Shown here in pieces: positions 9,665 through 60,886 of a stretch of 64,000 nt of DNA. Below the pieces are notes generated by a model. It did no database searches. It had not been told where the DNA came from and worked only from the letters and a program-made list of their open reading frames with translations. Each line of letters begins with the position of its first letter. Position 1 is the stretch's first letter. Made by a program: the position numbers and the translations under genes. Source of the stretch: Halioglobus sp. (GTDB taxonomy: Bacteria; Pseudomonadota; Gammaproteobacteria; Pseudomonadales; Halieaceae); contig JBDWQQ010000151.1 in NCBI GenBank assembly GCA_039986455.1, positions 4,376 to 68,375 on the forward strand. The letters run 5' to 3'.

Positions 9665-9666
9665 TC

Positions 9667-46206: not shown

Positions 46207-46761
46207 TCACTCGCCCTCCTCGGGTTTCGCTAATGCCTTAATCACCCGAGCAATGCGATCGGCTTCTTCGAGGCTCAAATCAAGCGGTACATTCTGGATA
46301 TAAACCACAAGGTCTTCGCGAATAGGAACAGGAAAAATTTCGTGCGGACTCCGCGGAGGATTCAGCACCAATTCTTCGCGCGCCTGAGCCTGCCCCGGCG
46401 TATCTCGCGCTGCGACTAGTTGCACTTCTGAGGCTTCGCCTTCCACACTCGAAAAATTGCTGGGGTCTTCCATCCAGCTGTAAAAATCACGAAGACCGGC
46501 TTTCAAGCGTTCATTGTAAATTTGCAGCGTTTCAGGGCGAATGGTTGAGCCTTGGAGCTTATGAAATCGACTGCACAAATCATCAACATCAAGCTGGCGT
46601 AAATCGAGACGCTCATGCGATCTGAGTTGAACCAATAGCTGCTCGGCTGCCCTCTTCCTGGCCCGGGCCGTGTCCGGCCGAATAACACCCGCCACCGTGC
46701 CCTGCCTGAGAAAGTCTAAGAAGGCCGCCTCCGAATATTTTCTGTTCTCCATACGCACCAT
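46207..46761 (-). CDS. Hypothetical soluble protein (about 185 aa)
   Basis: ORF open to a GTG at 46794; ATGs at 46761 and 46752 avoid overlap with the repeat at 46786-46882. No family recognised. Confidence 0.6.
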   Translation of the reverse strand: MVRMENRKYSEAAFLDFLRQGTVAGVIRPDTARARKRAAEQLLVQLRSHERLDLRQLDVDDLCSRFHKLQGSTIRPETLQIYNERLKAGLRDFYSWMEDPSNFSSVEGEASEVQLVAARDTPGQAQAREELVLNPPRSPHEIFPVPIREDLVVYIQNVPLDLSLEEADRIARVIKALAKPEEGE

Positions 46762-46785
46762 GACATTGTTGTTAGAACTCCAACT

Positions 46786-46882
46786 AGAATACACCGATGC
46801 TCGGAATTAGGCGAAAGCGGTCATTAGGCCCTGAAGCGGCCCTGAGAAGATAATGTGCGTTTTTCCCTCAAAGAAGCTGAGG
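46786..46882 (-). repeat. Junction repeat, complete but decayed copy
   Basis: + strand reads gaatacaccgatgctcggaattaggcgaaagcggtc-attaggccc...gtgcgtttttccctcaaagaagctgagg. Confidence 0.7.
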
Positions 46883-46922
46883 AAGTATCTAACATACTGG
46901 GAGAAAAGAATTTGGTTTGGGC

Positions 46923-46941
46923 CGCCAGCTTCCTGCTGGCG
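46923..46941 (-). terminator. Hairpin downstream of mscL, weak terminator candidate
   Basis: cgccagc-ttcct-gctggcg. A T-rich run appears only about 15 nt further on the minus strand. Confidence 0.3.
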
Positions 46942-46959
46942 ACCTAATGGCGACGAGCT

Positions 46960-47415
46960 CTAGGCTCCGCCCAGTTCAGATGTGCAGTTAGGACACCTTG
47001 TGGCCTTGATAGCTATACTCGTTAAGCAATGAGGGCACTCTTTTTCAGTAGGCTCAGCCGCCGGTTCCTCTTCTTCCGCTTGCATATTATTAATACTCCT
47101 TATGAGCAAAAATACTGCGAAAGCAACAATCAGAAAGCTTATCACTGCATTGATAAAGACACCGTAGCTAATAGTGACCGCACCGGCCTCTTGGGCGATT
47201 GCCAAGGTTGCGTAGGGACCTGCGTTAGCGCCCTCTTTTAATGTGATAAATAAATCGGAAAAATCGACCCCACCTAAAAGTAATCCTACGGGAGGCATAA
47301 TGACGTCTGCGACCAGGCTCTTCACGATGGTTCCGAACGCGCCGCCTATGATTATGCCCACTGCCATGTCGACGACATTTCCTCGCATTGCAAATTTTTT
47401 AAACTCTTCTAACAT
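46960..47415 (-). CDS. mscL: Large-conductance mechanosensitive channel MscL with a C-terminal CxxC-X10-CxxC extension
   Basis: [28 protein letters not shown]..., ends ...[27 protein letters not shown]. Confidence 0.9.
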
Positions 47416-47758
47416 TAAACACTCTCCTAAACGCTAATTTATTCCTATTCCCAATTAGGGGACAGGCTAGGCAACCAAGCTATAGATTTTTATCCAAGCC
47501 CTCCACGGGTATGCCTGAATAATTGTAGACCATTGGATCGATATTGGGCGAAAGTATGCCCTAGCGAGAAATTTCTATTCATGATTGCTTTTTCTCCCGC
47601 TGGGCTAAACGTACCAATGCCCCGAGAATTGTGACCGTCCGGCTGCGGTCACCTTATTAACACTCAGTTCCACCTATAAAACTGTAAATTAGCGCCGTAA
47701 TCTAAAAACAGCATGCGAAATTTCGTAGCTTTCAACCTCCTTACGCGCAAGGTGTTGC

Positions 47759-47792
47759 AGTTTGCAATTCAAAATACTTCAAGTTGCAAACT
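47759..47792. promoter_or_regulatory. 9-bp inverted repeat with 16-nt spacer in a 570-bp non-coding gap
   Basis: agtttgcaa-N16-ttgcaaact, about 220 nt upstream of the small ORF at 48015. Confidence 0.3.
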
Positions 47793-48014
47793 AAAACTTC
47801 ACAGCTACCTAATCTAGCCCCATCTACCACTGATATGTATGGCACGCATCTTGCTTTTACCTAAGAGCGATAAGGGAGGCGCCCACATTGGCCGGCGTCA
47901 CGCCATGCGAAGCCTCTAATGGCGGTTGGTGGGAGACATCTACCTTCAACTGAATTGTAGATATGCATGCAAAGTCACCCATAAATTTTTACAGACACTG
48001 AAAAGGAAGACGAA

Positions 48015-48242
48015 ATGAACGCAGTTTTAGGAACCCCAAAAGCGTCCCAAGTAAAGACGTCGAGCTTGGCTTTAATAAACAAATCTTCGAGCTACAGCAT
48101 GGATCCTGTCGCTCTGGCTTATCTAGATTTCAATTTGTTTACATCGCTACGCAAGCTGGGGGTAAGCCGTGAAAGATTGTGTTCAGCTTTATGCATCAGC
48201 TACGACGATTACTTCTACTTGTGCGAGCTTGAAATCGCTTAG
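48015..48242 (+). CDS. Hypothetical 75-aa protein, possibly HTH-like
   Basis: AGGAAG 6 nt upstream of the ATG. LRKLGVSRERLCSALCIS looks helix-turn-helix-like. Opposite strand to the surrounding array. Confidence 0.35.
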   Translation: MNAVLGTPKASQVKTSSLALINKSSSYSMDPVALAYLDFNLFTSLRKLGVSRERLCSALCISYDDYFYLCELEIA

Positions 48243-48404
48243 CCGCTCAGCACCGGTGTAGATACACTCTGAAGGTAGAAGTGCGAGCCTTTACTTAATC
48301 AGAGACATTGTGTTTTGGGACGCCTCGTTTGCCCCTTAAAAATTCGTTCCTAGCAGCAAGGGGGGAAAACACCACCCCTTCGCTTATTGAGCCGTCACTA
48401 TCGT

Positions 48405-48510
48405 CAGATAGGACGCCCAAAGCTATCGATGAGGCGAAAGCGGACATTACGGGGACTAATTCTTCGGAGAGTGAGTTATTTTTGCTTTCGCCTCAAAGCG
48501 GACATTGGTC
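48405..48510 (-). repeat. Junction repeat, complete copy with altered hairpins
   Basis: + strand reads ...gatgaggcgaaagcggac-attacgggg...tttttgctttcgcctcaaagcggac-attgg. Confidence 0.8.
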
Positions 48511-48943
48511 CAATCTTGTCTAGCGCCAGAGCTAGACTAACTAGGACGCCGCTAGTGCTCTCAACGACAAACCCTAAACGAAAGTACTGCTCGACTACCG
48601 AAGAGCCTTTAATGGCTCTGCATCTGATGAAGTTTTTGTCGCATTCAAAGACACGGGCACAAAGCCATTGGAAAATTTTGAGCCCATAGATATTGCCCTG
48701 GTGCTCAGGAGCCAGCTGAAGCGTATGTACAAATAAGCCATCCTGCACTTCTTCTACTGAGATAAAGCCTATCCACTGGCCTTTTAAGAATATCGAGTAG
48801 TTATCGAGCGACAAATAGTGTGTTCGGTTCCATTCGTCATCCCACGGAACACCGACTGCTTCTAGCGTGGCTGACATATTCGTCCGCATAAGAATCAGCC
48901 CTTTATCGAACTCAGACTGCTTGGCAGCTACTAACATCAACAT
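48476..48943 (-). CDS. GNAT-family N-acetyltransferase-like protein
   Basis: 155 aa with GNAT-like core LQLAPEHQGNIYGLKIFQW. The last ~11 codons read through hairpin 1 of the downstream repeat. Confidence 0.6.
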   Translation of the reverse strand: MLMLVAAKQSEFDKGLILMRTNMSATLEAVGVPWDDEWNRTHYLSLDNYSIFLKGQWIGFISVEEVQDGLFVHTLQLAPEHQGNIYGLKIFQWLCARVFECDKNFIRCRAIKGSSVVEQYFRLGFVVESTSGVLVSLALALDKIGPMSALRRKQK

Positions 48944-48999
48944 TTACTTAGCAACTCTTTAACAGCGCCTACTAGATGAAATGTTAACCCCGTGAATGA

Positions 49000-49371
49000 C
49001 TAAAGACTGTCACCTGAAATCCAAATCTTTGCGGCATCCAGTTCATTAAAATCAAAGTGCTTGATTTCAGCGCTTACAAAATGATTCCCTACTTTTTCAG
49101 CAATAGTTCCAACTGGAGAATTAGTCGCGAACGCAATGCGTGAAACCCTTCTATGGTGGTCCTTGACGAACTTCAAGTGAGACACGAGGGACGAAAAAGA
49201 GTCCCATCCCGGAAAATTTTCAACATGGATCGCAATGCCTTTTAAGTCACCGTGCTCTTCTATAAACGGGTCAACAATTTCAGCTACTGCCTTAAAGTCG
49301 TTTCCTGAAAGCTCTCCCTCTGGGGTCAATATTGCAATACCTGCCTCTTTATCAAGCTCGATGCTTAACAT
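49000..49371 (-). CDS. STAS/SpoIIAA-like protein (DUF3478 type)
   Basis: MLSIELDKEAGIAILTPEGELS...; AGGAG sits 8 nt upstream of the ATG at 49371. Confidence 0.75.
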   Translation of the reverse strand: MLSIELDKEAGIAILTPEGELSGNDFKAVAEIVDPFIEEHGDLKGIAIHVENFPGWDSFSSLVSHLKFVKDHHRRVSRIAFATNSPVGTIAEKVGNHFVSAEIKHFDFNELDAAKIWISGDSL

Positions 49372-49457
49372 TCGTAATCTCCTGAATCTATTGGACGTAA
49401 ACAACTGATCTAATCTAGGTTATGGCCCGCTTATAGTCGAAAGCGAGGTATTTCTTA

Positions 49458-49553
49458 AGTTTAGACCAAATGACCGCTACTAGGCGAAAGCGGACGTTAG
49501 AGGACTTTATTGGGCCCCGGGGCAGTTAAGCGCTCTTTCACCTCAACAGGGAC
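49458..49553 (-). repeat. Junction repeat, complete copy
   Basis: + strand reads aagtttagaccaaatgaccgctactaggcgaaagcggac-gttagaggactttattgggccccggggcagttaa-gcgctctttcacctcaacagggac. Confidence 0.9.
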
Positions 49554-49626
49554 TATTTAGAGGTGTGAATAGCGCTGTTTTCAATGTCACCTTTGGGGCC
49601 AAGAGCGAAATCTGCCACGCATAAGT

Positions 49627-50193
49627 TCAAACTTTATCGACTGTATATTTCCATTGAATGAAGTCATTGGAAAAAACCTGGGCTTTTGCTTCTGACAGCC
49701 TCACGACTTTCCCGATTTTTCCAAACAAGGGCAGGCCTCCACCCAGCAGGATGGGGGCCTGTGAAACACAAAGCTCGTCGATCAGGTCATGCTGAAAAAA
49801 TGAAGTAATCGTGGCCCCTCCATCCACATAGACATGTCCGAAACCGCTCCTTTCCAACTCGCCATACAACTCGGGGATAGTTCCGGAATACATCCTGACG
49901 TTGCCCGGTAGGCTGCGTGGGGCTTTCGAGACCGATTTGCTCAGCACATGGATTGGAATTTCTCTGTACGGCCATTGGTCTGGAGTCAGGTTAAAACTTG
50001 CTATCTTCTCCATCGTTCTACGCCCCATGACCATGCAGTCTACGGAGTCCAGATAACTCGAAAAACCGCCATCGCCCATAGGCTCTCTCTCCTCGGTTTC
50101 AGCATTTCCAGCAGAGTCTAGCCAATCCACACCACCATCAACGGTGGCAATGTAGCCATCAGCACTAGTAGCAATGTAAACGGAGCACTTCAT
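49627..50193 (-). CDS. Dihydrofolate reductase family protein (RibD C-terminal domain type)
   Basis: MKCSVYIATSADGYIATVDGGVDWL...VYVDGGATITSF. Confidence 0.85.
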   Translation of the reverse strand: MKCSVYIATSADGYIATVDGGVDWLDSAGNAETEEREPMGDGGFSSYLDSVDCMVMGRRTMEKIASFNLTPDQWPYREIPIHVLSKSVSKAPRSLPGNVRMYSGTIPELYGELERSGFGHVYVDGGATITSFFQHDLIDELCVSQAPILLGGGLPLFGKIGKVVRLSEAKAQVFSNDFIQWKYTVDKV

Positions 50194-50216
50194 ACCTGAA
50201 CTCTATTACCATGAGA

Positions 50217-50347
50217 GTCCGCTTTTGACGTCGAAAGCGGCTATTCACCATACCATAGCAGAAACCTCGCAAAGCAGACGAAAGCGAACATTAGGGGCCT
50301 GAGTTGACTCGGGGGCGTGAAACGTCCGCTTTCACCTCAAAGCGGTC
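50217..50347 (-). repeat. Junction repeat, complete copy with duplicated or disrupted hairpin 2
   Basis: + strand reads gtccgcttttgacgtcgaaagcggc...cagacgaaagcgaac-attaggggcctgagttgactcgggggcgtgaaac-gtccgctttcacctcaaagcggtc. Confidence 0.85.
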
Positions 50348-50720
50348 ATTCGGCCTTGGGGTGTCTAACGCTCCACATGAACCAGAGGGAAGCCAAAACC
50401 CCTGCTATTTGAACGAACATAAATAAGTACATATTAAGAGGGGTTCTAGTACCAAAGGGGAGAGCAATCGAATTGATCTCATCTAGTGCTACTTCAATGT
50501 AAACCAAAGAAAAGCCCGCGATGATTTGACCAGAAATAACCGCTGCAACCCATACCAAATATAATATTGAAATAACGGAGGCTTGCGCCTTCGTAAGGTT
50601 TCCGCCCACCAAATAGCTTACGGCCAAATACGCACTAACTAACGTAAAGTACATCTGTCCTGCTTGCCACATCTGGCCCATTTGGTTGTGCATCATCTCG
50701 CCCATTTCATACTCGGTCAT
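50346..50720 (-). CDS. Small multi-pass membrane protein, paralog family B
   Basis: MTEYEMGE..., SAYLAVSYLVGGNL, C-terminal WFMWSVRHPKAE. The stop overlaps the repeat stem. Confidence 0.75.
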   Translation of the reverse strand: MTEYEMGEMMHNQMGQMWQAGQMYFTLVSAYLAVSYLVGGNLTKAQASVISILYLVWVAAVISGQIIAGFSLVYIEVALDEINSIALPFGTRTPLNMYLFMFVQIAGVLASLWFMWSVRHPKAE

Positions 50721-50751
50721 TTCTTGTCTCCGTGTTTATAGAACTACAACA

Positions 50752-50800
50752 AGAATAGACCGATGTCCGCTGTTAGGCGAAAGCGGTGGCTTTGGGGCCA
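50752..50800 (-). repeat. Junction repeat, tail plus hairpin 2 only
   Basis: + strand reads agaatagaccgat-gtccgc-tgttaggcgaaa-gcggtg-gctttggggcc. Confidence 0.8.
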
Positions 50801-50817
50801 GTAAATGCCTCGTAACG

Positions 50818-51330
50818 CTAGTCATTCCAGAGGCAATCGACGGCCCCTGCCTCTGCAATGGACGGGTCGACAGCCTCAACGAAAGAACTTCTGTAAATGC
50901 CCTGTATATTTCCCCATATGCGTTGAAAGCAAGGTCTTCGCGCCTGAGAGGCGGCAATATCTCTCTGGTTCAACCACTCCTCTTCAGGAAGCAGTCCGAG
51001 CTCAAATTGATAATGGGCGTTCTCTGTCGTAGTTAGCCAGACAGTGAGATAAGTCCGGACAACTGAACGCTCGCTTTGGGTCATGGAACTGTGATCATTG
51101 CCCCACAGCTGCAGTGCACTCCTCAGTGTTTCGGGAGCAAGAGAGGCTAGGTTGATATCGATTTCCATTGCCGTCCGCTGCTGGTAGATATCAGCCCGAG
51201 CCATATCTCGGCTCAATTTGAGTTCATAGGCCACAAAAGCTAATGACAAGACAACTCCAAGTGCGGCCAGCATCTGACCAATCCACTGGTATATAGGTAG
51301 CTTCATCCTTGTTTTCCCCATTCGATTCAT
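50818..51330 (-). CDS. Hypothetical N-terminally anchored protein, paralog family A
   Basis: N-terminal TM helix, then YELKLSR and HYQFELGLLPEEEW (compare YHQFQLGLMPDSHW at 8557-9027). Alternative start at 51306. Confidence 0.6.
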   Translation of the reverse strand: MNRMGKTRMKLPIYQWIGQMLAALGVVLSLAFVAYELKLSRDMARADIYQQRTAMEIDINLASLAPETLRSALQLWGNDHSSMTQSERSVVRTYLTVWLTTTENAHYQFELGLLPEEEWLNQRDIAASQARRPCFQRIWGNIQGIYRSSFVEAVDPSIAEAGAVDCLWND

Positions 51331-51337
51331 CCAACAA

Positions 51338-51440
51338 AGGATAACCCGATGACCTCTATTAGGCGAAAGCGGGCATTACGGCCCTTACCAGACCTGGGGA
51401 CTGGAAACGTCCACTTTCACCTCAAAGCTGCTGTTAACGT
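51338..51440 (-). repeat. Junction repeat, complete copy
   Basis: + strand reads ggataacccgat-gacctc-tattaggcgaaa-gcgggc-attacggcccttaccagacctggggactggaaac-gtccac-tttcacctcaaa-gctgct. Confidence 0.9.
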
Positions 51441-51473
51441 TTAGTTCGGTGGCAGTATGCCGTCGTGACTGCC

Positions 51474-51887
51474 TTACCTTGTGATGCGAACCGGGTAGCA
51501 CCAATTTTCTCGCCATCGCTCTCGTTTCTCCTCACACGTTTGAGAGCTAAAATTAGCCTGCACAGAATCAGAGAAGCCCAGTTTATTATTAAGACAATTG
51601 GCATTTAACGCGCCGTACAGCTGATCATCAATTTCCGCTGTTACGAATACGAGCTGGCCACAATTGGCGCACTCATGAAAAACAGCGCTTTTTGAGCCGT
51701 GCTGGACCTCTTTAAGAAGTTTTCTATTGCGAATTAAAACATCAAATTTTGTCCCCGACTTTGTGACGTATTTTGCTGCTTTGGATAAGCAATAGTCACA
51801 CTGGCATGCTCGAGGCACCGAGCTGAGATCTACCGTATGCCAAGTAACCTGAATATTCTTGCAATCACAGCTGCCGGAGATACTCAT
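51474..51887 (-). CDS. GFA (glutathione-dependent formaldehyde-activating enzyme) family protein
   Basis: Cys pattern GSCDC...CQCDYC...HECANCG. Confidence 0.8.
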   Translation of the reverse strand: MSISGSCDCKNIQVTWHTVDLSSVPRACQCDYCLSKAAKYVTKSGTKFDVLIRNRKLLKEVQHGSKSAVFHECANCGQLVFVTAEIDDQLYGALNANCLNNKLGFSDSVQANFSSQTCEEKRERWRENWCYPVRITR

Positions 51888-51956
51888 TTAAGGGGCTTAT
51901 TACAGCTCATCAAAGCGGTTACTCAGTCTTGGCCCGTCGGTAGTGGGAGTGCGGGG

Positions 51957-52436
51957 TTATTCGCTTGCTTCGGGGACGACGCTGTAGTGCAGGCTAACAA
52001 TCTTCCAGGCACCTTCAATTTTCTGCCACACATCGGTTTCAAAAGCGCGTTCCTCGTTCATGCCCTGCGGATAGCGCGTGCGGTTGTCGATGAAGTAAGT
52101 GACGATAGCCATGTCGCCGCTAGGCATAAGCTGCACAAGTAGGTCCGATGTGTCGTTCTTCTCGACACCACCACCGGCGTTCATCAGTGAGTGCCATTCC
52201 TCGTTGTATGCGACTATGTCCTGGCGTTCGCCGTAAAAGTACACACTCGCATTCTCGGCATAAAAGCCGAAGTAGGTATCGACGTCGTTGGTCGCGTAGG
52301 CCTCGTTAAATGATGTATATGCGGTGGTGAGATCTTCGGGAATCTTTCCCTGATTCTCGGCGTTGGCCGCCAAGGGCAAGTGCAGAAGGAATAGAAGAGA
52401 GAGTGCGGCGCAACTAAATAGCATCTTGTAGTTCAT
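51957..52436 (-). CDS. Secreted SnoaL/DUF4440-like (NTF2 fold) protein
   Basis: Signal peptide ending LAANA. FNEAYATNDVDTYFGFY and WKIVSLHYS are typical of the fold. Confidence 0.7.
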   Translation of the reverse strand: MNYKMLFSCAALSLLFLLHLPLAANAENQGKIPEDLTTAYTSFNEAYATNDVDTYFGFYAENASVYFYGERQDIVAYNEEWHSLMNAGGGVEKNDTSDLLVQLMPSGDMAIVTYFIDNRTRYPQGMNEERAFETDVWQKIEGAWKIVSLHYSVVPEASE

Positions 52437-52708
52437 AACTATGGCCTACCGATTCGACGGCTTCGAAAAAATTAGAAGTGATGCGACGAGATTGTAGCAG
52501 AGTCAGATCAGAGATTCCGGGGCGAGATAAGCATCTCCCAAAACTCCCTACCCAACCGCTGCCGCACTCTGCAGTTGATGGTCGCAGAATGCATGAGTGA
52601 GATCTGCGTGTCACTCGGGACCAAGAAAGAACTTACCCGGAGCAATCCGGTGAGCACCAGTATTACTTCTTGCAGCCACATAACTTACTGCGCAGCGATT
52701 CTCTCAGC

Positions 52709-53647
52709 CTAGAGCACACTCGTTTGCAGTGGCTTACCGTCGAGAAAACTCTCAATATTCGATTGTGCGACCTGCGCTTGTGCGAACAGCGTCTCGTAGG
52801 TTGAGCCGCCTTGATGAGGCGTGAGGATCACGTTTGGAACATCGGCCCAACGATCGCTGCTGGTTGGCTCGGGGTCGAATACATCTAGCCCCGCACCACC
52901 GATTCGACGCGACCTGAGTGCGTCTATCAATGCTATTTCATCAACCACACTGCCTCGCGATACATTCACAAGTACACCGTCTGGCCCAAGTCGATCAAGA
53001 ATATTTTGACTGATCAGGTGTCTATTTGACGCGTCCGGTCGGCAACAGATGACTAGCCCGAGGCACTGATCAGCCAGCGCTTCGAGGGTATCGACGTAGG
53101 GAATGGCTGCGTCCGGTTTCGCTCTAGGACCCCACCATTTCAGGTCCAGCCCGAAAGGAGACAACCTTTTCACAACTTCCTGACCTATTGAGCCAAGGCC
53201 CACGATACCCACAGGCGTATTTCGAAGTGAGTGGCGCAGAGGGCCGGCCGGTGAGATCCATTGGTCGTTCATAATGTACGACTGCGATTGAGGTAAGCGC
53301 AATAGCAGGCTTGTCAGCAAAGTAGCCGCCAGATCAGCGACATCGCCAGAATTCAGCCCTGGGGCATTGGTTACCACGATACCACGCGATCGGCACTCAT
53401 CGAGGTCAACATTGCTGAAGCCGGCGGAGACCGAGGCAATCATTTTCAATCTGGGAAAACGCGACAACAGACTCTTGTCCAGCTTCTCAATGCTCGCTGA
53501 AAGAAGAACCTCCACCTCGCTACCGTGTTTCTCAATAATGTCGTTGATATCTCCTTTCCCAGTAATCCAGCGCCAGCGCGATGGTGGGTTGGGAAACAAG
53601 GTGTGCATTTGCGCGTGCATAGCAAGAATGCCTACGGACTCTGACAT
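52709..53647 (-). CDS. D-2-hydroxyacid dehydrogenase family (glyoxylate/hydroxypyruvate reductase-like)
   Basis: GIVGLGSIGQEV, VNVSRGSVVDE, LTPHQGGST. Confidence 0.9.
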   Translation of the reverse strand: MSESVGILAMHAQMHTLFPNPPSRWRWITGKGDINDIIEKHGSEVEVLLSASIEKLDKSLLSRFPRLKMIASVSAGFSNVDLDECRSRGIVVTNAPGLNSGDVADLAATLLTSLLLRLPQSQSYIMNDQWISPAGPLRHSLRNTPVGIVGLGSIGQEVVKRLSPFGLDLKWWGPRAKPDAAIPYVDTLEALADQCLGLVICCRPDASNRHLISQNILDRLGPDGVLVNVSRGSVVDEIALIDALRSRRIGGAGLDVFDPEPTSSDRWADVPNVILTPHQGGSTYETLFAQAQVAQSNIESFLDGKPLQTSVL

Positions 53648-53737
53648 TGGCAGCTCCTGTGTGGATAGTTTCGCGGCAGGCGCATTGAACAGCTAGCGCT
53701 CGCGTTCTGGGATAGTTATGTTCTTAGCTGGTCGGCC

Positions 53738-54913
53738 CTAGATGCTCAAATCAAGGGCGTTATAGTCGTGTAAGACAACCTTTGCTTCCGCGTTCCATTT
53801 GTAGTCCAGCCCTCGCTCTCGAAACGGCTGATACTCGTACGGCGCTTCGTCGGGAAAGCGCTGCCTTCGCGCGTCGATAGCGTAACCAATAACCTCAGAA
53901 CGCTTCGCGATAACTGCGTCGTCGAAAACTTGTGCTTCGTTATGGGTACCAGCACCCATCACGTTAAGCACCGAGCTCCGCCGGTGGAAGCCCATATTGA
54001 CTGTTATGCGAGGCTCGAAACCTGTATTGGCGAAGGACCCGTGAACAAGTTGGCGATTGCACAGGATTACATCACCGGCTTCGCAGACGAGAGGGACTGT
54101 TCCCTTGATGCGCTCGCTACCGGATTCCTTCACCAGTTCTGTGATGTCTACTTTTCCAGCTTTATGACTCCCCGGTAAAACCCAAACTCCGTTCACGGCA
54201 GTGCTTCCATAGACTTGGGCCATAAAGTTGAAACCGTGAATATCTTGATCAAAGTCTTCGCTGTCCCAATGAGTCGTGCCGTCCTGATGCCACGATACTG
54301 CGGCACCGATACCGGGTTCCTTGATGAACAGCGTTTCATTGAAGGGTGCGAAGTCTTGTCCATTAATCTCTTCGGCAACCTTCAATAACTGCGGGTGTCC
54401 GTAGACCCGCAGGCAGGTTTCGGAGAACTGCAGAGACCCAAGCAGGATGAATGGCGCCATTTCAGGCGCGTCGTCTGCGGCTATAGGCTCGTGCAGCTTT
54501 ACCTGATGCCTACCATTAGCGAGCGTTGAGCCGCCTAGAGGATCGCCCAGAGGCTTTGACCAAACTAATGTCGGTGCTTTGCAGTCAGCACCAAGTGCGG
54601 GCGCACCATCGGCCGTAAGCGGCTCCCCAGGCCCTACAGGGAACCGTTTTTTAAGGGCTTGGAGATCTTGTTCAATGTCTTGGAGCTCTTCAGGTTGCAG
54701 AACGCCGGTGAATACGTAAAAACCGTAGTGTTTGTAGGCATCCACAATCTTAGGGTCGAGCTTTCCGTCGCCATCGAAGGAGATAGGCCCCCGATTGTCC
54801 AGTTGCATTGCGCGTTCATGCCCACAGAGCAGATACGTCCGCATTGCCTGAGCATCATCACCATAGTGTGCCGCACACGCTTCAATTGATTCCATATAGT
54901 CTGGTTGCTTCAT
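53738..54913 (-). CDS. Phytanoyl-CoA dioxygenase (PhyH) family Fe(II)/2-oxoglutarate oxygenase
   Basis: 391 aa; VSWHQDG and LVHGSFANT. Confidence 0.85.
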   Translation of the reverse strand: MKQPDYMESIEACAAHYGDDAQAMRTYLLCGHERAMQLDNRGPISFDGDGKLDPKIVDAYKHYGFYVFTGVLQPEELQDIEQDLQALKKRFPVGPGEPLTADGAPALGADCKAPTLVWSKPLGDPLGGSTLANGRHQVKLHEPIAADDAPEMAPFILLGSLQFSETCLRVYGHPQLLKVAEEINGQDFAPFNETLFIKEPGIGAAVSWHQDGTTHWDSEDFDQDIHGFNFMAQVYGSTAVNGVWVLPGSHKAGKVDITELVKESGSERIKGTVPLVCEAGDVILCNRQLVHGSFANTGFEPRITVNMGFHRRSSVLNVMGAGTHNEAQVFDDAVIAKRSEVIGYAIDARRQRFPDEAPYEYQPFRERGLDYKWNAEAKVVLHDYNALDLSI

Positions 54914-54966
54914 TAGCGTGCCGTCCGCTTCAGTAGTATTCGTAAATGGGTTACATATTTTATTGA

Positions 54967-54982
54967 TAGTAAAATTTTACTA
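54967..54982. promoter_or_regulatory. Perfect 16-bp palindrome, candidate TetR operator
   Basis: TAGTAAAATTTTACTA between the divergent PhyH and TetR genes, followed by a further half-site, TAGTAAA, at 54985-54991. Confidence 0.5.
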
Positions 54983-54995
54983 ATAGTAAATTTAT

Positions 54996-55688
54996 GTGTC
55001 AATATCTATCCGATTAGATTGCTGGGAGAGCATTGTGGCTGCTAAAGGGCAGGCAACACGACAAGCAAATAAAGAACTTCGCAGGGAGAAAATACTCTCG
55101 GTCGCCAGGAGCCTGATCGCCGAAGAGGGGTTTGACGCCCTTACTATCAGCAAAATGGCCCAGAGATCCGGGGTTACCATTCCGACCGTGCACAACCTGC
55201 TAGGGAAGAAGAACGATATCGTTCTCGCGCTGTTCCGGGAACTCGTCGATCGCATTGATGAAGTACTTGCTGAACCCGAGATGGTGGATCCCATAGATGC
55301 ATCAGAGGCTTTCCTGGATAGCCTTCTGAAGCTCTACGGGTCCGATGAAGTGTTCTACAGGGCAGCGTTCCTGGGAGGAGAGCGTCTCGGGCTCTTTGAG
55401 CATGAAATGAACGATGGTGTATTCCGAAAGTCCATCAAGGTAGCGGAGCGACTCTGTGATCGCGCCCTTGAGCACGGATATCTGCTGGGCCGCGTGGACA
55501 GCCGCTGGTTGGCTCAGCAGTTGTTTGGTTCCCAGCGACTCGCGAGGCAGGACTGGGTCAGCGGATACATTGATTTGGCGACGTACCGGCAACAGGCTCT
55601 GATCGGTATGCTGATTACGTTCGCCGCAGATGCAACGCCAGATCTACACCAGCGAATCTGTCAGCGAATAGATCAGTTGGCGCGCTAA
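54996..55688 (+). CDS. TetR family transcriptional regulator
   Basis: GTG start; ILSVARSLIAEEGFDALTISKMAQRSGVTIPTVHNLLG is the HTH. Confidence 0.85.
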   Translation: MSISIRLDCWESIVAAKGQATRQANKELRREKILSVARSLIAEEGFDALTISKMAQRSGVTIPTVHNLLGKKNDIVLALFRELVDRIDEVLAEPEMVDPIDASEAFLDSLLKLYGSDEVFYRAAFLGGERLGLFEHEMNDGVFRKSIKVAERLCDRALEHGYLLGRVDSRWLAQQLFGSQRLARQDWVSGYIDLATYRQQALIGMLITFAADATPDLHQRICQRIDQLAR

Positions 55689-55872
55689 CACGGCGAAAAC
55701 TTTCAATCTGGTGGCCCCACCGAGACTTGAACCCTGGAAAAATCGCTTACAAGTCTAAAGGCCTTGCCCTCCCCTGCTTCGGACAGATCATAGGTTGTCG
55801 CAATGTCAGCCTATAACGCCCAGCAAGCCATCATGCACGCTCACTGGAGCGCCTGTTACTGGCGCGTATGTT

Positions 55873-56349
55873 TTAGTTCTCATTCAAAGCAACAATGTCG
55901 CCAAGGATTTCAGCAGACAGTACCGATTTTGACAGGTACTGTTGACCTCCAGATTTAGTCACTAGAATGATGCCCAGATCTGTTTCAACAACACGCTCAA
56001 CATCTGACCACAGCAATGAAGATTGCGTATAGGGGTTGCGCGTTTGTATCCCGTCTGAGTCTATGGTCAATTTCACTTCGCTGTTAGCGCTCCTCCCCCA
56101 CATCTGCCTAGCTAACCACCACGCTCGTCGAAATCGTATATGAATCAGTTCCAGTGCGCCCAGAGCGATTAAGATGAACCCCGCGACCTTGGGCTGCTGA
56201 CTAAATACCAGCAAGCCTGATCCAGCGACAAACAATATGACTGGAAATAGATAACTAGGCTTGGCGTTTTTCCCATGAGGCAAAGACTGATCGAAACATT
56301 CAGCAAGGTACTCCCGAGACAACATGAATTGAGTATTGAAATGCTTCAT
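55873..56349 (-). CDS. YcxB-like membrane protein
   Basis: 158 aa; two central TM helices followed by a bPH-like C-terminal part. Confidence 0.55.
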   Translation of the reverse strand: MKHFNTQFMLSREYLAECFDQSLPHGKNAKPSYLFPVILFVAGSGLLVFSQQPKVAGFILIALGALELIHIRFRRAWWLARQMWGRSANSEVKLTIDSDGIQTRNPYTQSSLLWSDVERVVETDLGIILVTKSGGQQYLSKSVLSAEILGDIVALNEN

Positions 56350-56502
56350 GGCAAAGACTTGTTATGGATAATTCAGTTGTAGTAGCGCTAGCATTTCTAG
56401 CGTAACTATTAATAGATGCTTGCTCACAGCGCTAGATTAGTTTTCTGTACGCAAACATTTGTTCATCAGCTCTCTGCACAAGCACCTCTAGTTCGTACTT
56501 TT

Positions 56503-57951
56503 TCACTTAGGGAATTGCGTCATATTAACCGGCGCGGGGTTAGGGTATTTCTGCAGCGACTTTTGGTACTCGCCAATCAACTTCAGGTACGGACCGATTA
56601 CCCAAGCACTTGTGCCAAGTACATTCATTTCCTCACGTGGGTCAGCCTCTATATTGAAAATCGCGGGAAAGCCGTTCCCCTCCTGACGTTGACCCGCAAG
56701 ACCATACATTGCCGGGTTTCCCGCCGAGCTCACAAATTGCTTGGGGTAAATCCTGTACTGACGCCAACGCACGGCTGCGACTTCTTCGCCGACAAAGGAA
56801 ATTAGACTCTCCCGATTGGAGTTAGGCTGACTACCAATCAGAAAATTGCTCTGATCAACGCCATCGATCGGCCTGTCGGTGGGAATATCCGCGCCGATGA
56901 TCGCCGCAAGAGTCGGGAAAAAGTCGTGGACGGAAACCATCTCGTTACTGACGCGCGGCTCGATCTTACCTGGCCACTTAATCATGCCAATGGTGCGGAT
57001 GGAGCCTTCCAGCGCATCTCCAAGCTCTCCGCGAAATGGGCCATTGGAACCTGGACGAGAATCAGATGGGCCGGAAGTCGGGGCAGCTGCATTATCTGAG
57101 AGCCACAGAACGATAGTGTTGTCCTCAATACCGGCCGACTTAATCGCATCCAGCACTTGGCCAGTGCGGTAATCGAGCTCCATTACAGCGTCGCCGTAGC
57201 CACCGATACGTGACTTCCCGACAAATTCAGGCGCAGCCAGCGTAGGATAATGGGTGTGAGTCCAGCCAACGTATAAGAAGAAGGGTTGCTTCTCTTTAGC
57301 CTGGCGTTGGATGAAATCGACAGACGCCTTGGCGATGTCGCCTTCTACTTGTTGGCGATACTCCAGCGTATACGGTCTCACCTTCTTCAGGTCACCATTC
57401 GCCTTCGACTCCCAGATGTACGGCTCCGCCGCTGCTACCACCGCCTCAGGTAAACCGGCCCTCTCCATAGACTCACGGTACAAAGTGCCATCGGTGGTCT
57501 CCAGTACGCCCACATGGTATTCATCGAAGCCCTGACGAGTCGGCCAGCTCTGCTCACTTGAACCTAGATGCCACTTACCCGCAATAGCGGTGGCATAACC
57601 CCGGCTTTTGAATAGCTCACCCAGGGTCACTTCCTCTGCCTGAAGCGTATTAGGAGTGTTAGCGACGATAACGGTGCTCAAGCCTGACCGCGGCGAATAC
57701 CGCCCGGTCATCAGCGCCGCGCGTGACGGCGTGCAGCCGGGCTCTACTAAGTATTGGGTTAGACGCAAACCCTGTTCGGCAATAGAGTCTATCCGCGGGG
57801 TGGGCATACCGCGCACCTCGCCCGCGCCATAGGCGCCGATATCTCCATAACCGACATTGTCGCCCAACATGATGACAACATTGGGATTGTCTTGAGCAAT
57901 CACAGAGTCCGTTAGGGCAAAAAGTAACATTGGTATCAAAAAGCGTTTCAT
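56503..57951 (-). CDS. Arylsulfatase (formylglycine-dependent sulfatase family), secreted
   Basis: Signal peptide, CTPSRAALMTGR motif, and GGAGGAAA upstream of the ATG at 57951. Confidence 0.9.
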   Translation of the reverse strand: MKRFLIPMLLFALTDSVIAQDNPNVVIMLGDNVGYGDIGAYGAGEVRGMPTPRIDSIAEQGLRLTQYLVEPGCTPSRAALMTGRYSPRSGLSTVIVANTPNTLQAEEVTLGELFKSRGYATAIAGKWHLGSSEQSWPTRQGFDEYHVGVLETTDGTLYRESMERAGLPEAVVAAAEPYIWESKANGDLKKVRPYTLEYRQQVEGDIAKASVDFIQRQAKEKQPFFLYVGWTHTHYPTLAAPEFVGKSRIGGYGDAVMELDYRTGQVLDAIKSAGIEDNTIVLWLSDNAAAPTSGPSDSRPGSNGPFRGELGDALEGSIRTIGMIKWPGKIEPRVSNEMVSVHDFFPTLAAIIGADIPTDRPIDGVDQSNFLIGSQPNSNRESLISFVGEEVAAVRWRQYRIYPKQFVSSAGNPAMYGLAGQRQEGNGFPAIFNIEADPREEMNVLGTSAWVIGPYLKLIGEYQKSLQKYPNPAPVNMTQFPK

Positions 57952-58030
57952 ATTTCCTCCCACGAGATTCTCTCAGCTTGTGCAGCATTACCGGCTTCAG
58001 GATAAGGCAGTTCCCACTGAGTGCCATTGT

Positions 58031-58459
58031 TCATTCACTAAAAGGCGCACCCGCAAGATGTAACATTGTGTAGTTTGCAAGAGCAGCCTTTCGATGTCTG
58101 GACGCCGATTCGAACACTGGATCAGACAGCATCTGCATAAACGCTTTCCTTGTCGGGAAATACATCACCGCAGCTAAATCCCACGATGGGTCTGAGGGTC
58201 CGATCAATGTCTGATCTACTGGTGTACTAAAAACAACTCTACCACCAAGGTCTCGAATAGAACTGCCTGCAATGTCTCCGTATCGGGCGTAAGCCTCCCG
58301 TCCTGTTACATCAGCCTCGGATGTCCCATATTCAGGGTCTTCTGGTTGATACTGGGCCTTGGCATTGAATTGAAAAAGGTTCAAAGCGGCCACAGGCGCA
58401 TCAGCGGGTAAAGACTGCAATTTCGTTATTTGCTCTTGAGTAGGTACCAATACAGACAT
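58031..58459 (-). CDS. DUF1330 domain protein
   Basis: 142 aa; FPTRKAFMQMLSDPVFESASRHRKAAL resembles DUF1330. Confidence 0.75.
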   Translation of the reverse strand: MSVLVPTQEQITKLQSLPADAPVAALNLFQFNAKAQYQPEDPEYGTSEADVTGREAYARYGDIAGSSIRDLGGRVVFSTPVDQTLIGPSDPSWDLAAVMYFPTRKAFMQMLSDPVFESASRHRKAALANYTMLHLAGAPFSE

Positions 58460-58528
58460 AAGACCCTCAAAGATACGTATTCATGTGTGGCCGCATTACA
58501 ACCGCTTAAGGCGTGACCGAAAAGCGAT

Positions 58529-59359
58529 TCACGAGGCACTGGCTCGGTTGCGATATTTTTCTTTGTTCTTGGCGCCCTTCTTGTAAAGTGATGGCCGCAT
58601 TTTCCGGCGTAACCATGGGAAGAGATAGCTCAGGTTAGTTAAACGGCCGCTCATGGCGGGCATGCAAATCTCCACGCTTTCGCCATTAGCCACTGCCACC
58701 ACCGCCTCTGCCACTTCGCCAGCGGTACTCATCGGTTGCGAATAAACGATATCTTCCACTTCGTCGATGCTATCCATGATAAATGCAGTATCAATGGGAC
58801 CCGGTGCTACTACACCCACATTGATATCACTGCCAGCGAGTTCGTCTGCGAGTGAGTGGGCAAATGCCTTTAGACCTGCCTTGGTAGACGCGTAGGTCGC
58901 GGCCCCCTGCATTGGCGTGCGACCCGCGAGAGAGCCGACCATAACCACGGCGCCGCCGCCGGCTTTGCGGATGTGAGGCAACGCGAGCGCGGTCAGGTAG
59001 ATCGGCGCCCGTAAATTGACATCGACCATTTGGGCCATATTTGCAGGCGTTTGTGTTTCTACCGCACCGCGATGGTGTGCGCCTGCGTTATTCACCAGCA
59101 CATGAATAGCACCAAACTCAGCCGCAGCTTGCTCGACCAAGGCTTGGCATCCCGCCTCGTCTGCAACGTCCATGGGAATAGCGAGTACACTGGTTTTATC
59201 GCGCAGCGTATCGGCAAAAGTATTCAGTGCCTCCTCGCCCCGCGCAGATAGCACGAGTCGGGCCCCTAGGTCCGCAAATAGTTCGGCGCAAGCGGCACCC
59301 ACACCCGCCGAGGCGCCGGTGATAATGACGGTTTTGTCTTTGAAGTTCGATGTGCTCAT
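58529..59359 (-). CDS. Short-chain dehydrogenase/reductase
   Basis: TGASAGVG, NNAG, YASTKAG. Confidence 0.9.
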   Translation of the reverse strand: MSTSNFKDKTVIITGASAGVGAACAELFADLGARLVLSARGEEALNTFADTLRDKTSVLAIPMDVADEAGCQALVEQAAAEFGAIHVLVNNAGAHHRGAVETQTPANMAQMVDVNLRAPIYLTALALPHIRKAGGGAVVMVGSLAGRTPMQGAATYASTKAGLKAFAHSLADELAGSDINVGVVAPGPIDTAFIMDSIDEVEDIVYSQPMSTAGEVAEAVVAVANGESVEICMPAMSGRLTNLSYLFPWLRRKMRPSLYKKGAKNKEKYRNRASAS

Positions 59360-59522
59360 GGGCTTCTCACATGTCCAAATTGATAGATGTTGTATTTACG
59401 GTCTTCTGTGGCGCCATTGTAGCCTGACTTACGCCAGGTTGTGAGCAGTCGCTTTTGGGCGGCGATTGACTCATGGGCCGGTGTTCACTCATAACGTCTC
59501 TTGGCTAACAGTCACCAAGCAC

Positions 59523-60035
59523 TCACTCAAGCACTCTAAGAATTTGTATGCGCTCCCCATCGAGCCCAATTATTTGTGTATGGGTAACGCGAAAATCTCC
59601 TATTTTTGCGTACTGTACCCTCTCGTCGGAAAAAGCGGGCTTGGCTCCTTTTGATATCGCTAAATCATACGTGGCCTTTACATCTGCAACCTCAATCGCA
59701 AAATGATTGATGGGCTCTTGTACCTCTTGCCGAGCATCGGGATCAGCCCTTTGTAGAAACTCAAGATGCATACCGTTGTCACCAACCAGATAGAGCCCAG
59801 CCAACGGGACTGTTTGATAATTTTCATCATCAAAACTGATGTCCATGCTATCCCACTCTCTGACAACCTTTAGACCAAACACGGATGTATAAAAATCTTT
59901 TGTTCTTTCTAAGTTGGTAACATAGACACCAATATCGTAAACATTCGAGCCCGATTGTCCTTGAGCGCTGGCAAAAGTCGAGACTCCCATTAACGTGAGG
60001 ATAAAGATTAATCTGGATAAAGGTGCATTAACCAT
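59523..60035 (-). CDS. Secreted VOC/glyoxalase family protein
   Basis: Start at the ATG at 60035 (GGAGAG upstream) gives the signal peptide MVNAPLSRLIFILTLMGVSTFASA. VOC motifs FYTSVFGL and HFAIEV. Confidence 0.75.
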   Translation of the reverse strand: MVNAPLSRLIFILTLMGVSTFASAQGQSGSNVYDIGVYVTNLERTKDFYTSVFGLKVVREWDSMDISFDDENYQTVPLAGLYLVGDNGMHLEFLQRADPDARQEVQEPINHFAIEVADVKATYDLAISKGAKPAFSDERVQYAKIGDFRVTHTQIIGLDGERIQILRVLE

Positions 60036-60224
60036 TTCTAGTCTCTCCGTGTTTCCGAAATTAGATGGCAGTAAGCTTGGCATTCGCCCGACATAGATTA
60101 AGAGCTTTCGCCTATAGCTGTTGAACTGCGAATTTGATAAGCGCGATGAGGCAGCAGCTACTGCTGCGCCCATATGCCACCTATGCCCCGCTGCTATGCC
60201 CCGCTACGATGACTCACTGCTTTT

Positions 60225-60719: not shown

Positions 60720-60886
60720 AGTGTTTCCTTTAGCGACTAGTTAGTGAAGGTAGTAGAACTTCGTTTTAAAGATAAGGCAGTCTCAAAATTATAGACTAAT
60801 TTACTGTTGCCACAGCCCGAATGCAGGTACTCAGATCTGTATTGGCAGCGCTTGGACGGCTCGGTGTTTTGATATCGCACACTTTG

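Follow-up and report, generated by a model that had tools for sequence, protein, structure and literature searches.

The stretch analysed here, a 64-kb window of the chromosome of a marine Halioglobus (Halieaceae), contains two arrays of small ORFs punctuated by a repeat of ~100 nt. Arrays 1 and 2 carry the same repeat family in opposite orientations, and their GC content is 0.44–0.49 versus 0.51–0.56 in the surroundings. A first-pass annotation had placed six repeat copies and eight minus-strand ORFs in array 2. All are present at the coordinates first given, the repeats to within a few bases of the nhmmer profile matches. The features are listed below, with array 2 in gene orientation; H1 and H2 denote the two 28-bp sites, or hairpins, that make up a repeat.

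13000–19176, plus strand: array 1, with repeat family and cassette ORFs (nhmmer, 28-mer scan, blastp paralogs)
51957–52436, minus strand: SnoaL/DUF4440-like ORF, 159 aa, first of array 2 (Pfam DUF4440/SnoaL_3, E ~1e-9)
51888–51956, minus strand: SnoaL/GFA junction with only a truncated hairpin 1 (AACCGCTTTGATGAG, ~51906–51925; L035 alignment)
51474–51887, minus strand: GFA family cassette ORF, 137 aa (Pfam PF04828, E = 4e-6)
51335–51438, minus strand: full junction repeat (nhmmer E = 9.5e-25; 28-mer scan); H1 at 51407–51434 (ACAGCAGCTTT-GAGGTG-AAAGTGGACGT), H2 at 51349–51376 (ATGCCCGCTTT-CGCCTA-ATAGAGGTCAT), 34-nt variable middle between them
50818–51330, minus strand: cassette ORF, 170 aa, without Pfam match; paralog of 8494–9027
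50747–50805, minus strand: partial junction, H2 only (nhmmer E = 1.3e-7), at 50763–50790 (GCCACCGCTTT-CGCCTA-ACAGCGGACAT, plus leader GGTCTATTCTTGTTG)
50346–50720, minus strand: ORF of a 122-aa membrane-protein family, 124 aa here (blastp E = 1e-8 to 1e-18 to paralogs)
50264–50354 (profile match 50268–50354), minus strand: junction repeat (nhmmer E = 4e-20); H1 at 50322–50349 (ATGACCGCTTT-GAGGTG-AAAGCGGACGT, 1 mismatch, TGA stop codon inside the left arm), H2 at 50264–50291 (degenerate)
50218–50241, minus strand: extra variant hairpin CCGCTTTCGACGTCAAAAGCGGAC in the leader of the next cassette (read from the sequence)
49627–50193, minus strand: RibD C-terminal (RibD_C)/DHFR-like cassette ORF, 188 aa (Pfam PF01872, E = 7e-16)
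49456–49557, minus strand: junction repeat (nhmmer E = 4e-24); H1 at 49528–49555 (degenerate), H2 at 49470–49497 (ACGTCCGCTTT-CGCCTA-GTAGCGGTCAT)
48476–49404, minus strand: two-ORF cassette, SpoIIAA-like/STAS (49000–49404, Pfam E = 2.5e-16) and weak GNAT (48476–48943, E = 0.003, below the Pfam cut-off)
48416–48510, minus strand: junction repeat (nhmmer E = 2e-21); H1 at 48478–48505 (overlapped by the end of the GNAT ORF), H2 at 48420–48447 (right arm decayed)
47516–48415, minus strand: ORF-poor cassette position ending in a decayed H2 (47541–47566) and leader (GGTCTACAATTA)
46960–47415, minus strand: mscL cassette ORF, 151 aa (Pfam PF01741, E = 4e-45)
46781–46879, minus strand: last junction repeat of array 2 (nhmmer E = 1.3e-21); H1 at 46853–46880 (degenerate), H2 at 46797–46824 (ATGACCGCTTT-CGCCTA-ATTCCGAGCAT)
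46207–46794, minus strand: ORF in cassette position past the last repeat, 195 aa, no Pfam match, no repeat after it

Pfam searches upheld the proposed mscL, STAS, RibD_C/DHFR-like, GFA and SnoaL assignments, whereas GNAT is weak. Two of the eight array-2 ORFs have no Pfam match, and both are paralogous to array-1 ORFs, as had been suggested. The ORF at 50818–51330 is tied to 14360–14824 in array 1 through their paralog 8494–9027. That at 50346–50720 has blastp paralogs at 15553–15930, 16017–16385, 16469–16879 and 9769–10140; its family comprises 299 homologues, almost all of 122 aa, and three members are among the array-1 cassette ORFs. The STAS and GNAT ORFs have no repeat between them, and we therefore treat them as one two-ORF cassette. 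The rule that hairpin 1 always follows a stop codon is broken by the GNAT ORF, whose reading frame runs through it. Between 47567 and 48415 there is no convincing ORF, the sole one being a 75-aa plus-strand ORF without Pfam match. Hairpins resembling the variant at 50218–50241 also occur near 49420–49445 and in the related loci L050 and L040.

Using a profile built from nine full copies to search the window with nhmmer, we obtained array-2 matches with E values from 1e-7 to 1e-25, all on the minus strand. Outside the arrays, whether in the 27 kb that separates them or in the flanks, neither the profile nor a 28-mer scan finds copies; in array 1 the 28-mer scan finds 14 H1/H2 sites. Allowing up to 3 mismatches, 15-nt cores gave 21 matches each, versus 1.8–2.0 expected from shuffles (largest shuffle value 6), a tenfold enrichment, and 20 of the 21 fall within the two arrays. 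Partial junctions are numerous. Among the decayed traces reported at first pass, 47541–47566 aligns with an H2 that is intact in L054, where it lies upstream of the mscL cassette, and 51906–51922 with the intact first hairpin of the homologous cassette in L035; 52441–52480 could not be established as the remnant of a repeat.

A repeat is made up of two 28-bp sites, inverted relative to each other and each with an 11-6-11 layout. In gene orientation, H1 reads ATGaCCGCTTT-GAGGTG-AAAGCGGACAT, with a stop codon within or adjoining it, and H2, ACGTCCGCTTT-CGCCTA-ATAGCGGACAT, is approximately its reverse complement. A variable middle of 32–35 nt follows H1 (this spacing is kept in 63 of 66 copies), and H2 is followed by a leader, often ATCGGTCTATyCTTGTTG, and the next start codon. 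Anchoring on the arms only gives just two centres, CGCCTA (n = 115) and CACCTC (n = 87). Inner arms and centres are nearly invariant and outer arms degenerate: information content is 1.6–2.0 bits through the centre and 0.3–1.4 bits at the first outer-arm base of H1 and H2. Conservation ends precisely at the outer edge of the 6-bp centres, which is where cassette joints map. H1 and H2 are built like a tyrosine-recombinase core site. The consensus junction, taken as single-stranded DNA, is predicted to form one long imperfect hairpin (−25.8 kcal/mol, z = −6.1), and 0 of 200 shuffles were as stable. Outer-arm covariation is absent both within the junction (p = 0.25) and within the cassette (p = 0.40), and selection on the apical stem in the variable middle is only weak (mean z = −0.49), so that structural support comes from conserved sequence and not from compensatory change.

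We found the repeat only in Halieaceae genomes (Halioglobus, Haliea and Seongchinamella), and >95% of the ~130 copies in relatives lie in co-oriented arrays with a spacing of 400–1000 nt. The claim that repeat polarity tracks gene direction held for the 11 ORFs between successive repeats in the window, the exceptions there being 17357–18970 in array 1 and, at 48015–48242, a doubtful ORF of 75 aa. Over all related loci and the window, 121 inter-repeat ORFs are co-oriented and 16 opposed, a ratio that excludes random orientation relative to flanking genes. Nor do the ORFs behave as conserved core genes: in the relatives, homologous cassettes sit in other arrays beside different neighbours, as seen for the mscL, GNAT and SnoaL cassettes. 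The SnoaL cassette (51910–52533) is 90% identical to L035 3868–4487, the GNAT cassette (48429–48963) 80% identical to L066 3077–3611, and the mscL cassette 80–82% identical to copies in other contexts in L054 and L032. The flank at 53120–55812 corresponds to L066 8000–5307 (88% identity), where a different array adjoins it. Cassettes have thus been shuffled between genomes.

One cassette present in L045 and absent from L030 defines a clean indel with its joint inside the repeat: up to and including GTCCGC the L030 junction equals the upstream junction of L045, and from GCCT-G on it equals the downstream one. This places the joint within the 9 nt TTTCGCCTA, which includes the H2 centre, a resolution of 9 invariant nucleotides set by three informative positions in a single indel. 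Homologous cassettes in L021 and L054 stop matching right after GCCTA, and in four homologous cassette pairs similarity is higher for the leader and variable middle that belong to the cassette than for the foreign ones. In a 97%-identical pair, window 16017–16385 and L080, the variable middles are unrelated, which implies a break between H1 and the middle. A single H2 crossover does not explain this break; a second exchange or gene conversion is needed.

The modular ORF-plus-repeat layout, the polarity rule and the cassette-like cargo bear out the integron-cassette idea of the first-pass annotation, whereas the filing under integrons that it implied fails on the recognition model, the boxes and the integrase. 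In our view the arrays are unlikely to be ordinary integron cassettes (CALIN), in which the repeat would be an attC peculiar to the lineage and homogeneous within it, and an IntI from another part of the genome would recombine it in folded single-stranded form. In favour of this reading, cassette organisation, polarity and cargo match sedentary chromosomal integrons: mostly single, small, promoter-less-looking ORFs, encoding proteins such as GNAT, SnoaL, glyoxalase-type, mscL and DHFR-like, are each followed by a ~100-nt imperfect palindrome of the same polarity; the repeats are homogeneous within the lineage; and cassette content varies between close relatives at a conserved locus. Junction topology is also attC-like, with two inverted sub-sites around a variable middle and crossover at the 3′ sub-site. 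It is common for a CALIN to have no intI in its vicinity, and 95% of such CALINs lack an intI pseudogene (PMC4889954); no integrase adjoins the array here either. A genuine attC at L030 3701–3775 indicates that Halieaceae have met integron cassettes. However, a covariance model built from 7 real attCs, which recovers both held-out L116 attCs (33.8 and 27.8 bits) and the L030 attC (27.8 bits), matched none of the window repeats at E ≤ 10, even with filters off, and none of the repeats of 57 related loci. The conserved AAC/GTT triplet of attC (PMC4889954) and the RYYYAAC...GTTRRRY boxes are absent from the base of the hairpin; AAY/RTT motifs adjoin the variable middle, in reverse order. Scored with a weight matrix from 10 real attC 5′ halves, half-sites reach 3.5 bits, not above background (null 99.9th percentile, 6.1). 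A true attC and the repeat stand side by side within one L030 cassette, and tblastn with the exact IntI1 sequence found no IntI in the window or 98 loci. Unlike attC, the sub-sites are 11-6-11 and pair near-perfectly, with no obvious extrahelical bases; unlike in integrons, many cassettes carry a conserved leader of 20–50 nt as part of their 5′ end, and each genome has many dispersed arrays, with both orientations represented inside a single replichore. The repeat is not a canonical attC.

Other systems account for parts of this picture. A selfish REPIN/BIME-type element, in which a RAYT transposase moves pairs of inverted REP units, these accumulate in accessory-gene islands and shuffling is a by-product of homologous recombination between copies, would match the inverted short palindromes, short spacer and long hairpin of ~100 nt, the multiple copies per genome at many loci and the lineage specificity. 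It would also suit the L080-pair breakpoint away from the H2 centre and the short junction at 15946–15990, which looks like a deletion between direct GCGGAC repeats. We nonetheless judge it improbable: ~45 kb of ordinary window genes lack any copy, the repeats are confined to cassette arrays at about one per small ORF, REPINs do not show such an orientation bias relative to ORFs, the joints are precise, the sharp conservation edge and clean indel point to site-specific exchange, and none of the scanned ORFs has a Y1-transposase domain, nor was a RAYT seen. Junctions acting mainly in RNA, where hairpins between the cistrons of a polycistronic transcript would serve for termination, stabilisation or RNase III-like cleavage and a leader hairpin would control translation, would explain why H1 begins at the stop codon and the leader finishes at the ribosome-binding site; in some leaders CCTTGTT and AACAAGG form a pairing that overlaps the Shine-Dalgarno sequence. 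A long imperfect hairpin with internal loops also resembles phage intercistronic processing sites. We consider this reading very unlikely: it leaves cassette turnover and the indel joint unexplained, loop and centre sequences are conserved and not just pairing, leader hairpins occur in only 28 of 127 leaders versus 15 of 127 shuffled, no Rfam family matches, and there is no T-run for intrinsic termination. Most doubtful of all are Xer-dependent modules comparable to the pdif modules of Acinetobacter plasmids, in which host XerC/XerD act on 28-bp sites; these would account for the lack of a dedicated recombinase nearby. The 11-6-11 geometry, the ORF flanked by inverted sites (H2 ... ORF ... H1) in alternating orientation and the missing recombinase in cis are dif-module-like, and one conserved arm plus centre with the other arm degenerate is also seen in dif-like sites of Xer-exploiting elements. 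Among these, CTX-phage attP(+) likewise has two inverse 28-bp core-type sites tens of nt apart that can anneal in single-stranded DNA to form the substrate, with a recombinase acting in trans, as we propose here. The proteobacterial dif is GGTGCGCATAA-TGTATA-TTATGTTAAAT, although that of Halieaceae may differ, and the arms ATGTCCGCTTT / AAAGCGGACAT are unrelated to it. Unlike pdif modules, the arrays are long and chromosomal, with dozens of cassettes and sites paired at a fixed 32–35 nt; unlike attP(+), single in a phage genome, the element is repeated in arrays flanking cargo genes.

On balance, we favour the reading that arrays 1 and 2 are chromosomal integron-type mobile cassette arrays built on a lineage-specific, non-canonical site that is not attC. 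The mobile unit would begin with the right arm of H2, take in leader, ORF(s), H1 and variable middle, and end with the next H2's left arm and centre. Neither the 64-kb window nor ~100 related loci encode an integron integrase, another recombinase or a transposase, and we infer the mechanism from site architecture alone: a site-specific recombinase acting in trans from elsewhere in the genome, most likely a tyrosine recombinase and possibly a divergent integron integrase, would carry out strand exchange between two H2 sites, acting at the H2 centre and so excising and re-inserting circular cassettes. H1 would serve as the pairing partner that builds a folded substrate, as in attC sites and the CTX-phage attP hairpin. 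As the repeat fails the attC tests and has no integrase in its vicinity, the recombination system that acts on it may be a different or divergent one.

Direct- and inverted-repeat searches of the window recovered a repeat family common to 13.0–19.2 kb (plus strand, array 1) and 46.8–51.4 kb (minus strand, array 2). Using a profile built from nine full copies, the array-2 copies were placed as follows, with E-values of 1e-7 to 1e-25.

46781–46879, minus strand, array-2 repeat copy
48416–48510, minus strand, array-2 repeat copy
49456–49557, minus strand, array-2 repeat copy
50268–50354, minus strand, array-2 repeat copy
50747–50805, minus strand, array-2 repeat copy
51335–51438, minus strand, array-2 repeat copy

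The profile search found no copies outside the two arrays in the 64 kb, and a 28-mer scan agreed. Searches with the two 15-nt cores, allowing at most 3 mismatches, returned 21 matches each, compared with 1.8–2.0 expected from dinucleotide shuffles, and 20 of the 21 core matches are located within the arrays. GC content is lower in the arrays than in their surroundings, and the DNA between them carries genes of ordinary metabolism (tyrosine catabolism, plsB, an ABC transporter and DbpA). Across the whole window the cumulative GC skew declines monotonically, which places both arrays (13000–19176, plus strand, and 46781–52436, minus strand) in one replichore; as they are oppositely oriented, the site has not kept any preference for one strand with respect to replication.

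The eight minus-strand ORFs that the first-pass annotation had described in array 2 are real. Pfam supports the assignments mscL, SpoIIAA-like/STAS, RibD_C, GFA and SnoaL/DUF4440 and lends weak support to GNAT, and the two ORFs lacking a Pfam hit are paralogs of array-1 ORFs. Repeats do in general separate the ORFs, as had been proposed, but STAS and GNAT occupy one cassette; the rule that the first hairpin of the repeat (H1) always follows a stop codon fails for GNAT, whose ORF reads across H1. For two of three decayed traces reported earlier, homologous cassettes in other genomes have an intact site at the aligned position; the third is unconfirmed. No convincing ORF was found at 47.57–48.42 kb.

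From alignments of 58–74 copies, the following consensus junction was derived in gene orientation.

Site H1, after the stop codon: ATGaCCGCTTT-GAGGTG-AAAGCGGACAT
Variable middle, between H1 and H2: 32–35 nt
Site H2, after the variable middle and followed by the leader: ACGTCCGCTTT-CGCCTA-ATAGCGGACAT

Both sites are 11-6-11 palindromes (28 bp) with an arm symmetry of 9–10 out of 11 in the consensus. H2 approximates the reverse complement of H1, and the inverted short palindromic units form a hairpin; the H1–H2 spacing is 32–35 nt in 63 of 66 copies. When a 9-nt arm served as the sole anchor, essentially two centres were recovered, CGCCTA (115 times) and CACCTC (87 times). At both sites the inner arm and centre carry 1.6–2.0 bits per position and conservation falls off sharply with the first outer-arm base, an edge that coincides with the cassette joints. 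The consensus junction is predicted to fold as one long imperfect hairpin rather than two small ones (−25.8 kcal/mol, z = −6.1), with an internal loop at the two 6-bp centres and an asymmetric bulge in the middle; individual copies fold less stably than the consensus. In attC sites the recombinogenic strand is marked by unpaired central spacers and extrahelical bases; in the predicted fold of the repeat an A.C mismatch is frequent (30 of 66 copies) and no conserved single bulged G or T was seen. The apical stem of the variable middle is under weak selection. We found no covariation supporting pairing of the outer arms, which leaves an arrangement with the ORF enclosed in a giant attC loop without support.

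Several variants of this anatomy were observed. A third type of hairpin, CCGCTT(T/A)CGAC-NNN-AAAAGCGGAC, combines the same arms with a 7-nt centre and occurs downstream of H2 in some cassette leaders (50218–50241, approximately 49420–49445, and two fetched loci from other genomes, L050 and L040). At 15946–15990 a short junction has H1 (CCGCCCCCCTT-GAGATG-AAAGCGGAC) fused directly to the leader TTCGGTCTATC; the variable middle and the H2 left half are gone, apparently through a deletion between two direct GCGGAC arms. Some leaders contain a further hairpin, CCTTGTTGGAGG...TCTAACAAGGAG, whose 3′ arm includes the Shine-Dalgarno sequence just before the ATG (for example at L014 1864, L065 852, L050 701 and L080 1243, all in fetched loci). 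This leader hairpin occurs in 28 of 127 leaders versus 15 of 127 shuffled controls, and therefore marks a subfamily without belonging to the site itself; masking of the ribosome-binding site is real in some cassettes and was rejected as a general feature.

With one genome per species, an exact 17-mer of the repeat was found only in Halieaceae (Halioglobus MAGs, Haliea and Seongchinamella), chance hits such as one in Helicobacter pylori aside, and most matching genomes contain several separate repeat loci. The profile search identified approximately 130 copies in the fetched loci. In the loci of relatives, over 95% of copies lie in co-oriented arrays with a spacing of 400–1000 nt, and junction repeats measure 90–110 nt. 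The polarity of the repeat relative to the ORFs, first described in the window, was borne out in these loci: between successive repeats of the loci and the window together, 121 ORFs (called by a greedy longest-ORF heuristic) are co-oriented with the repeat and 16 opposed, so the polarity rule is valid well beyond the window. A rare anti-oriented cassette is present in array 1, where an ORF of 537 aa that matches DUF1330 weakly (17357–18970, minus strand) sits between an H1 remnant (17193–17220) and H2 sites at 19090–19117 and 19135–19162. A two-part pattern of the repeat matched 17 further marine metagenome contigs, and a more divergent version flanks distant members of a 122-aa family in metagenome contigs. 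A database search gave 299 homologues of these predicted membrane proteins (16017–16385 and paralogs), which end in FMWxVRHP; almost every homologue is exactly 122 aa in length, and most are on marine metagenome contigs of under 3 kb, the size expected where assemblies break at the repeats. The product of 16017–16385 has an identical annotated counterpart in a Halioglobus sp. MAG, from which the window probably derives.

The integron-like cargo that the first-pass annotation had recognized holds up, and the cassettes do not behave as fixed genes: homologues recur with different neighbours in other loci. Copies of the SnoaL cassette (90% identity, L035), the mscL cassette (80–82%, L054 and L032), the GNAT cassette (80%, L066) and the array-1 cassettes at 13249–14306 and 15965–16476 (L021 and L080) all have different neighbours, and the housekeeping flank at 53120–55812 has an 88%-identical counterpart in L066 that borders a different array on its opposite side. 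One cassette is present in L045 and absent from L030; up to and including H1, the variable middle and GTCCGC, the L030 junction is the same as the upstream one of L045, and from GCCT-G on it is the same as the downstream one. Comparison of four pairs of homologous cassettes showed greater similarity for a cassette's own leader and middle than for foreign ones. In attC sites the cassette boundary lies at G|TT of R′, at the site's 3′ end; here it falls in the 3′ sub-site, within the invariant 9 nt TTTCGCCTA, which has no GTT; these 9 nt, obtained from one indel together with the conservation edges, set the resolution of the crossover. The unit moves between arrays and genomes with its joints inside this segment, and it is modular: it begins at the right arm of H2, takes in the leader, the ORF(s), H1 and the middle, and ends with the left arm and centre of the next H2. 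An IS200/IS605-like model, with the unit boundary at TTAC just after H1, was rejected because the L030/L045 indel keeps the middle with the upstream cassette. One cassette pair is 97% identical, yet its variable middles are unrelated; exchanges therefore also take place at or near H1, which is unexplained by any single-site model.

At 8494–12950 and 55873–63803, two runs of small accessory ORFs, each on a single strand and with no repeats detected, look like older arrays with decayed repeats. The left run includes paralogs of both cassette families (8494–9027 and 9769–10140). Among the ORFs of the right run are YcxB, DUF1330, an SDR, two glyoxalases, DUF2306, SNase and SnoaL_2, and its SDR (58529–59359) is a cassette inside an array in L035.

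In function and organisation the repeat arrays are integron-type cassette arrays, for which the closest operational category is CALIN. Under attC/CALIN definitions, the site is an imperfect palindrome of about 57–141 nt at the 3′ end of a cassette ORF, co-oriented and less than 4 kb from the next, and the junction repeats agree in length, orientation and clustering. They differ in three defining properties, R box sequence and position, detection by an attC model and a nearby IntI, and for this reason we do not file them as an attC array. attC sites have a conserved AAC/GTT triplet (IntegronFinder paper, PMC4889954). Reference attCs from class 1 integrons on plasmids carry 5′-RYYYAAC ... GTTRRRY-3′ ends in gene orientation, and the first seven pairs of the published attC covariance model have the same canonical order. 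The repeat has no RYYYAAC...GTTRRRY R box with its triplet at the hairpin base; the base consists of ATGwCCGCTTT / AtAGCGGwCAT or, one step further in, GGTGAAA / TTTCGCC. AAY and RTT motifs do occur, on either side of the variable middle (RTT...AAY) and away from the base. A likeness to a Vibrio repeat had suggested that the half-sites might be permuted attC halves; against a weight matrix of 10 real attC 5′ halves they scored at background, even with a skip of 5–7 nt, and we discarded the idea.

R1, a covariance model that we made from 7 real attCs and that is distinct from the model of IntegronFinder, recovered both of two held-out attCs of another integron (33.8 and 27.8 bits). With filters off and E ≤ 10 it matched none of the approximately 20 sites in the window; in 57 related loci it matched no repeat either. 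It did find a genuine attC at L030 3701–3775 (plus strand; ATTTAAC...GTTAGGT, 75 nt, 27.8 bits), directly after a SnoaL/DUF4440-like ORF and 12 nt before H1 of the Halieaceae repeat. The two kinds of site are thus distinct and can share one cassette, and L030 appears to hold an integron-style cassette nested inside a Halieaceae-style cassette. A weaker attC candidate was seen at L038 398–456 (19.9 bits). A literature search within the library covered found nothing linking integrons or attC sites with Halieaceae.

Searches by tblastn with an IntI1 query verified as exact (100%) detected no IntI in the window or in 98 loci. No Phage_integrase domain and no recombinase or transposase domain was found in the window ORFs scanned, no RAYT (Y1 transposase) gene in the window or loci, and no recombinase around homologues of the 122-aa family, where arrays lie at contig ends. 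The only tblastn matches were C-terminal tyrosine recombinase fragments of about 60–70 aa at the ends of two arrays.

L002 6774–6989, minus strand, tyrosine recombinase C-terminal fragment at the downstream end of the array
L026 1564–1791, plus strand, tyrosine recombinase C-terminal fragment at the downstream end of the array

The two are homologous, sit at arrays on the same Halioglobus contig and have only fragments as counterparts in the protein database. We rejected them as the cassette recombinase, as they are P4-type island integrase remnants whose near full-length relative (in L118) has no repeats nearby.

On balance we favour a joint model in which a trans-acting tyrosine-type recombinase would swap strands at the 6-bp centre of H2, excising and inserting circular cassettes, and in which the inverted partner H1, at its fixed distance, would build a folded single-stranded substrate. 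This is how the attC sites of integrons and the attP hairpin of CTX phage work. A divergent attC recombined by a classical IntI that is encoded elsewhere would share the palindromic, co-oriented organisation of the junctions; with the R box absent and the repeats passed over by R1, we consider it unlikely, and if correct it would still be useful as an extreme test of attC sequence drift.

The other explanations seem weaker. Like REP/REPIN-RAYT systems, the Halieaceae repeat is an inverted short palindromic pair that forms a hairpin; those elements are dispersed through ordinary intergenic regions, whereas all copies of the Halieaceae repeat in the window and over 95% of those in relatives lie in arrays, and a REPIN-like selfish repeat shuffling via homologous recombination is decidedly improbable. 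A primarily RNA-level role is given still less credence; an Rfam scan of the window at gathering thresholds gave no match. Xer/dif-type modules have the same 28-bp 11-6-11 geometry as H1 and H2, and the arms show no resemblance by eye to the E. coli dif sequence, which may not match the Halieaceae dif; dependence on Xer is the reading to which we attach least weight.

To date, integrons are the only system for stockpiling and shuffling single-gene cassettes that is well understood, and all known integrons share the IntI/attC pair with its AAC/GTT signature. We tentatively suggest that Halieaceae may possess a second cassette platform parallel to integrons, with dozens of dispersed chromosomal arrays and a double 11-6-11 site whose sequence is unrelated to that of attC, its cassettes moved by a recombinase other than a classical IntI or by a strongly divergent IntI, and able to enclose a whole integron cassette (ORF and true attC, as in L030). 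That the platform is a separate one with its own recombinase is a possibility we regard with similar reserve. If true, standard attC-model searches would probably miss the system and marine genome surveys would undercount it. The homogeneous and readily recognised site, conserved leader and many small arrays make a tractable system for how cassettes are created, and a true attC and the repeat in one cassette give direct access to exchange between the two. The same logic with a different site, used family-wide, would mean that cassette platforms evolved or diverged more than once.
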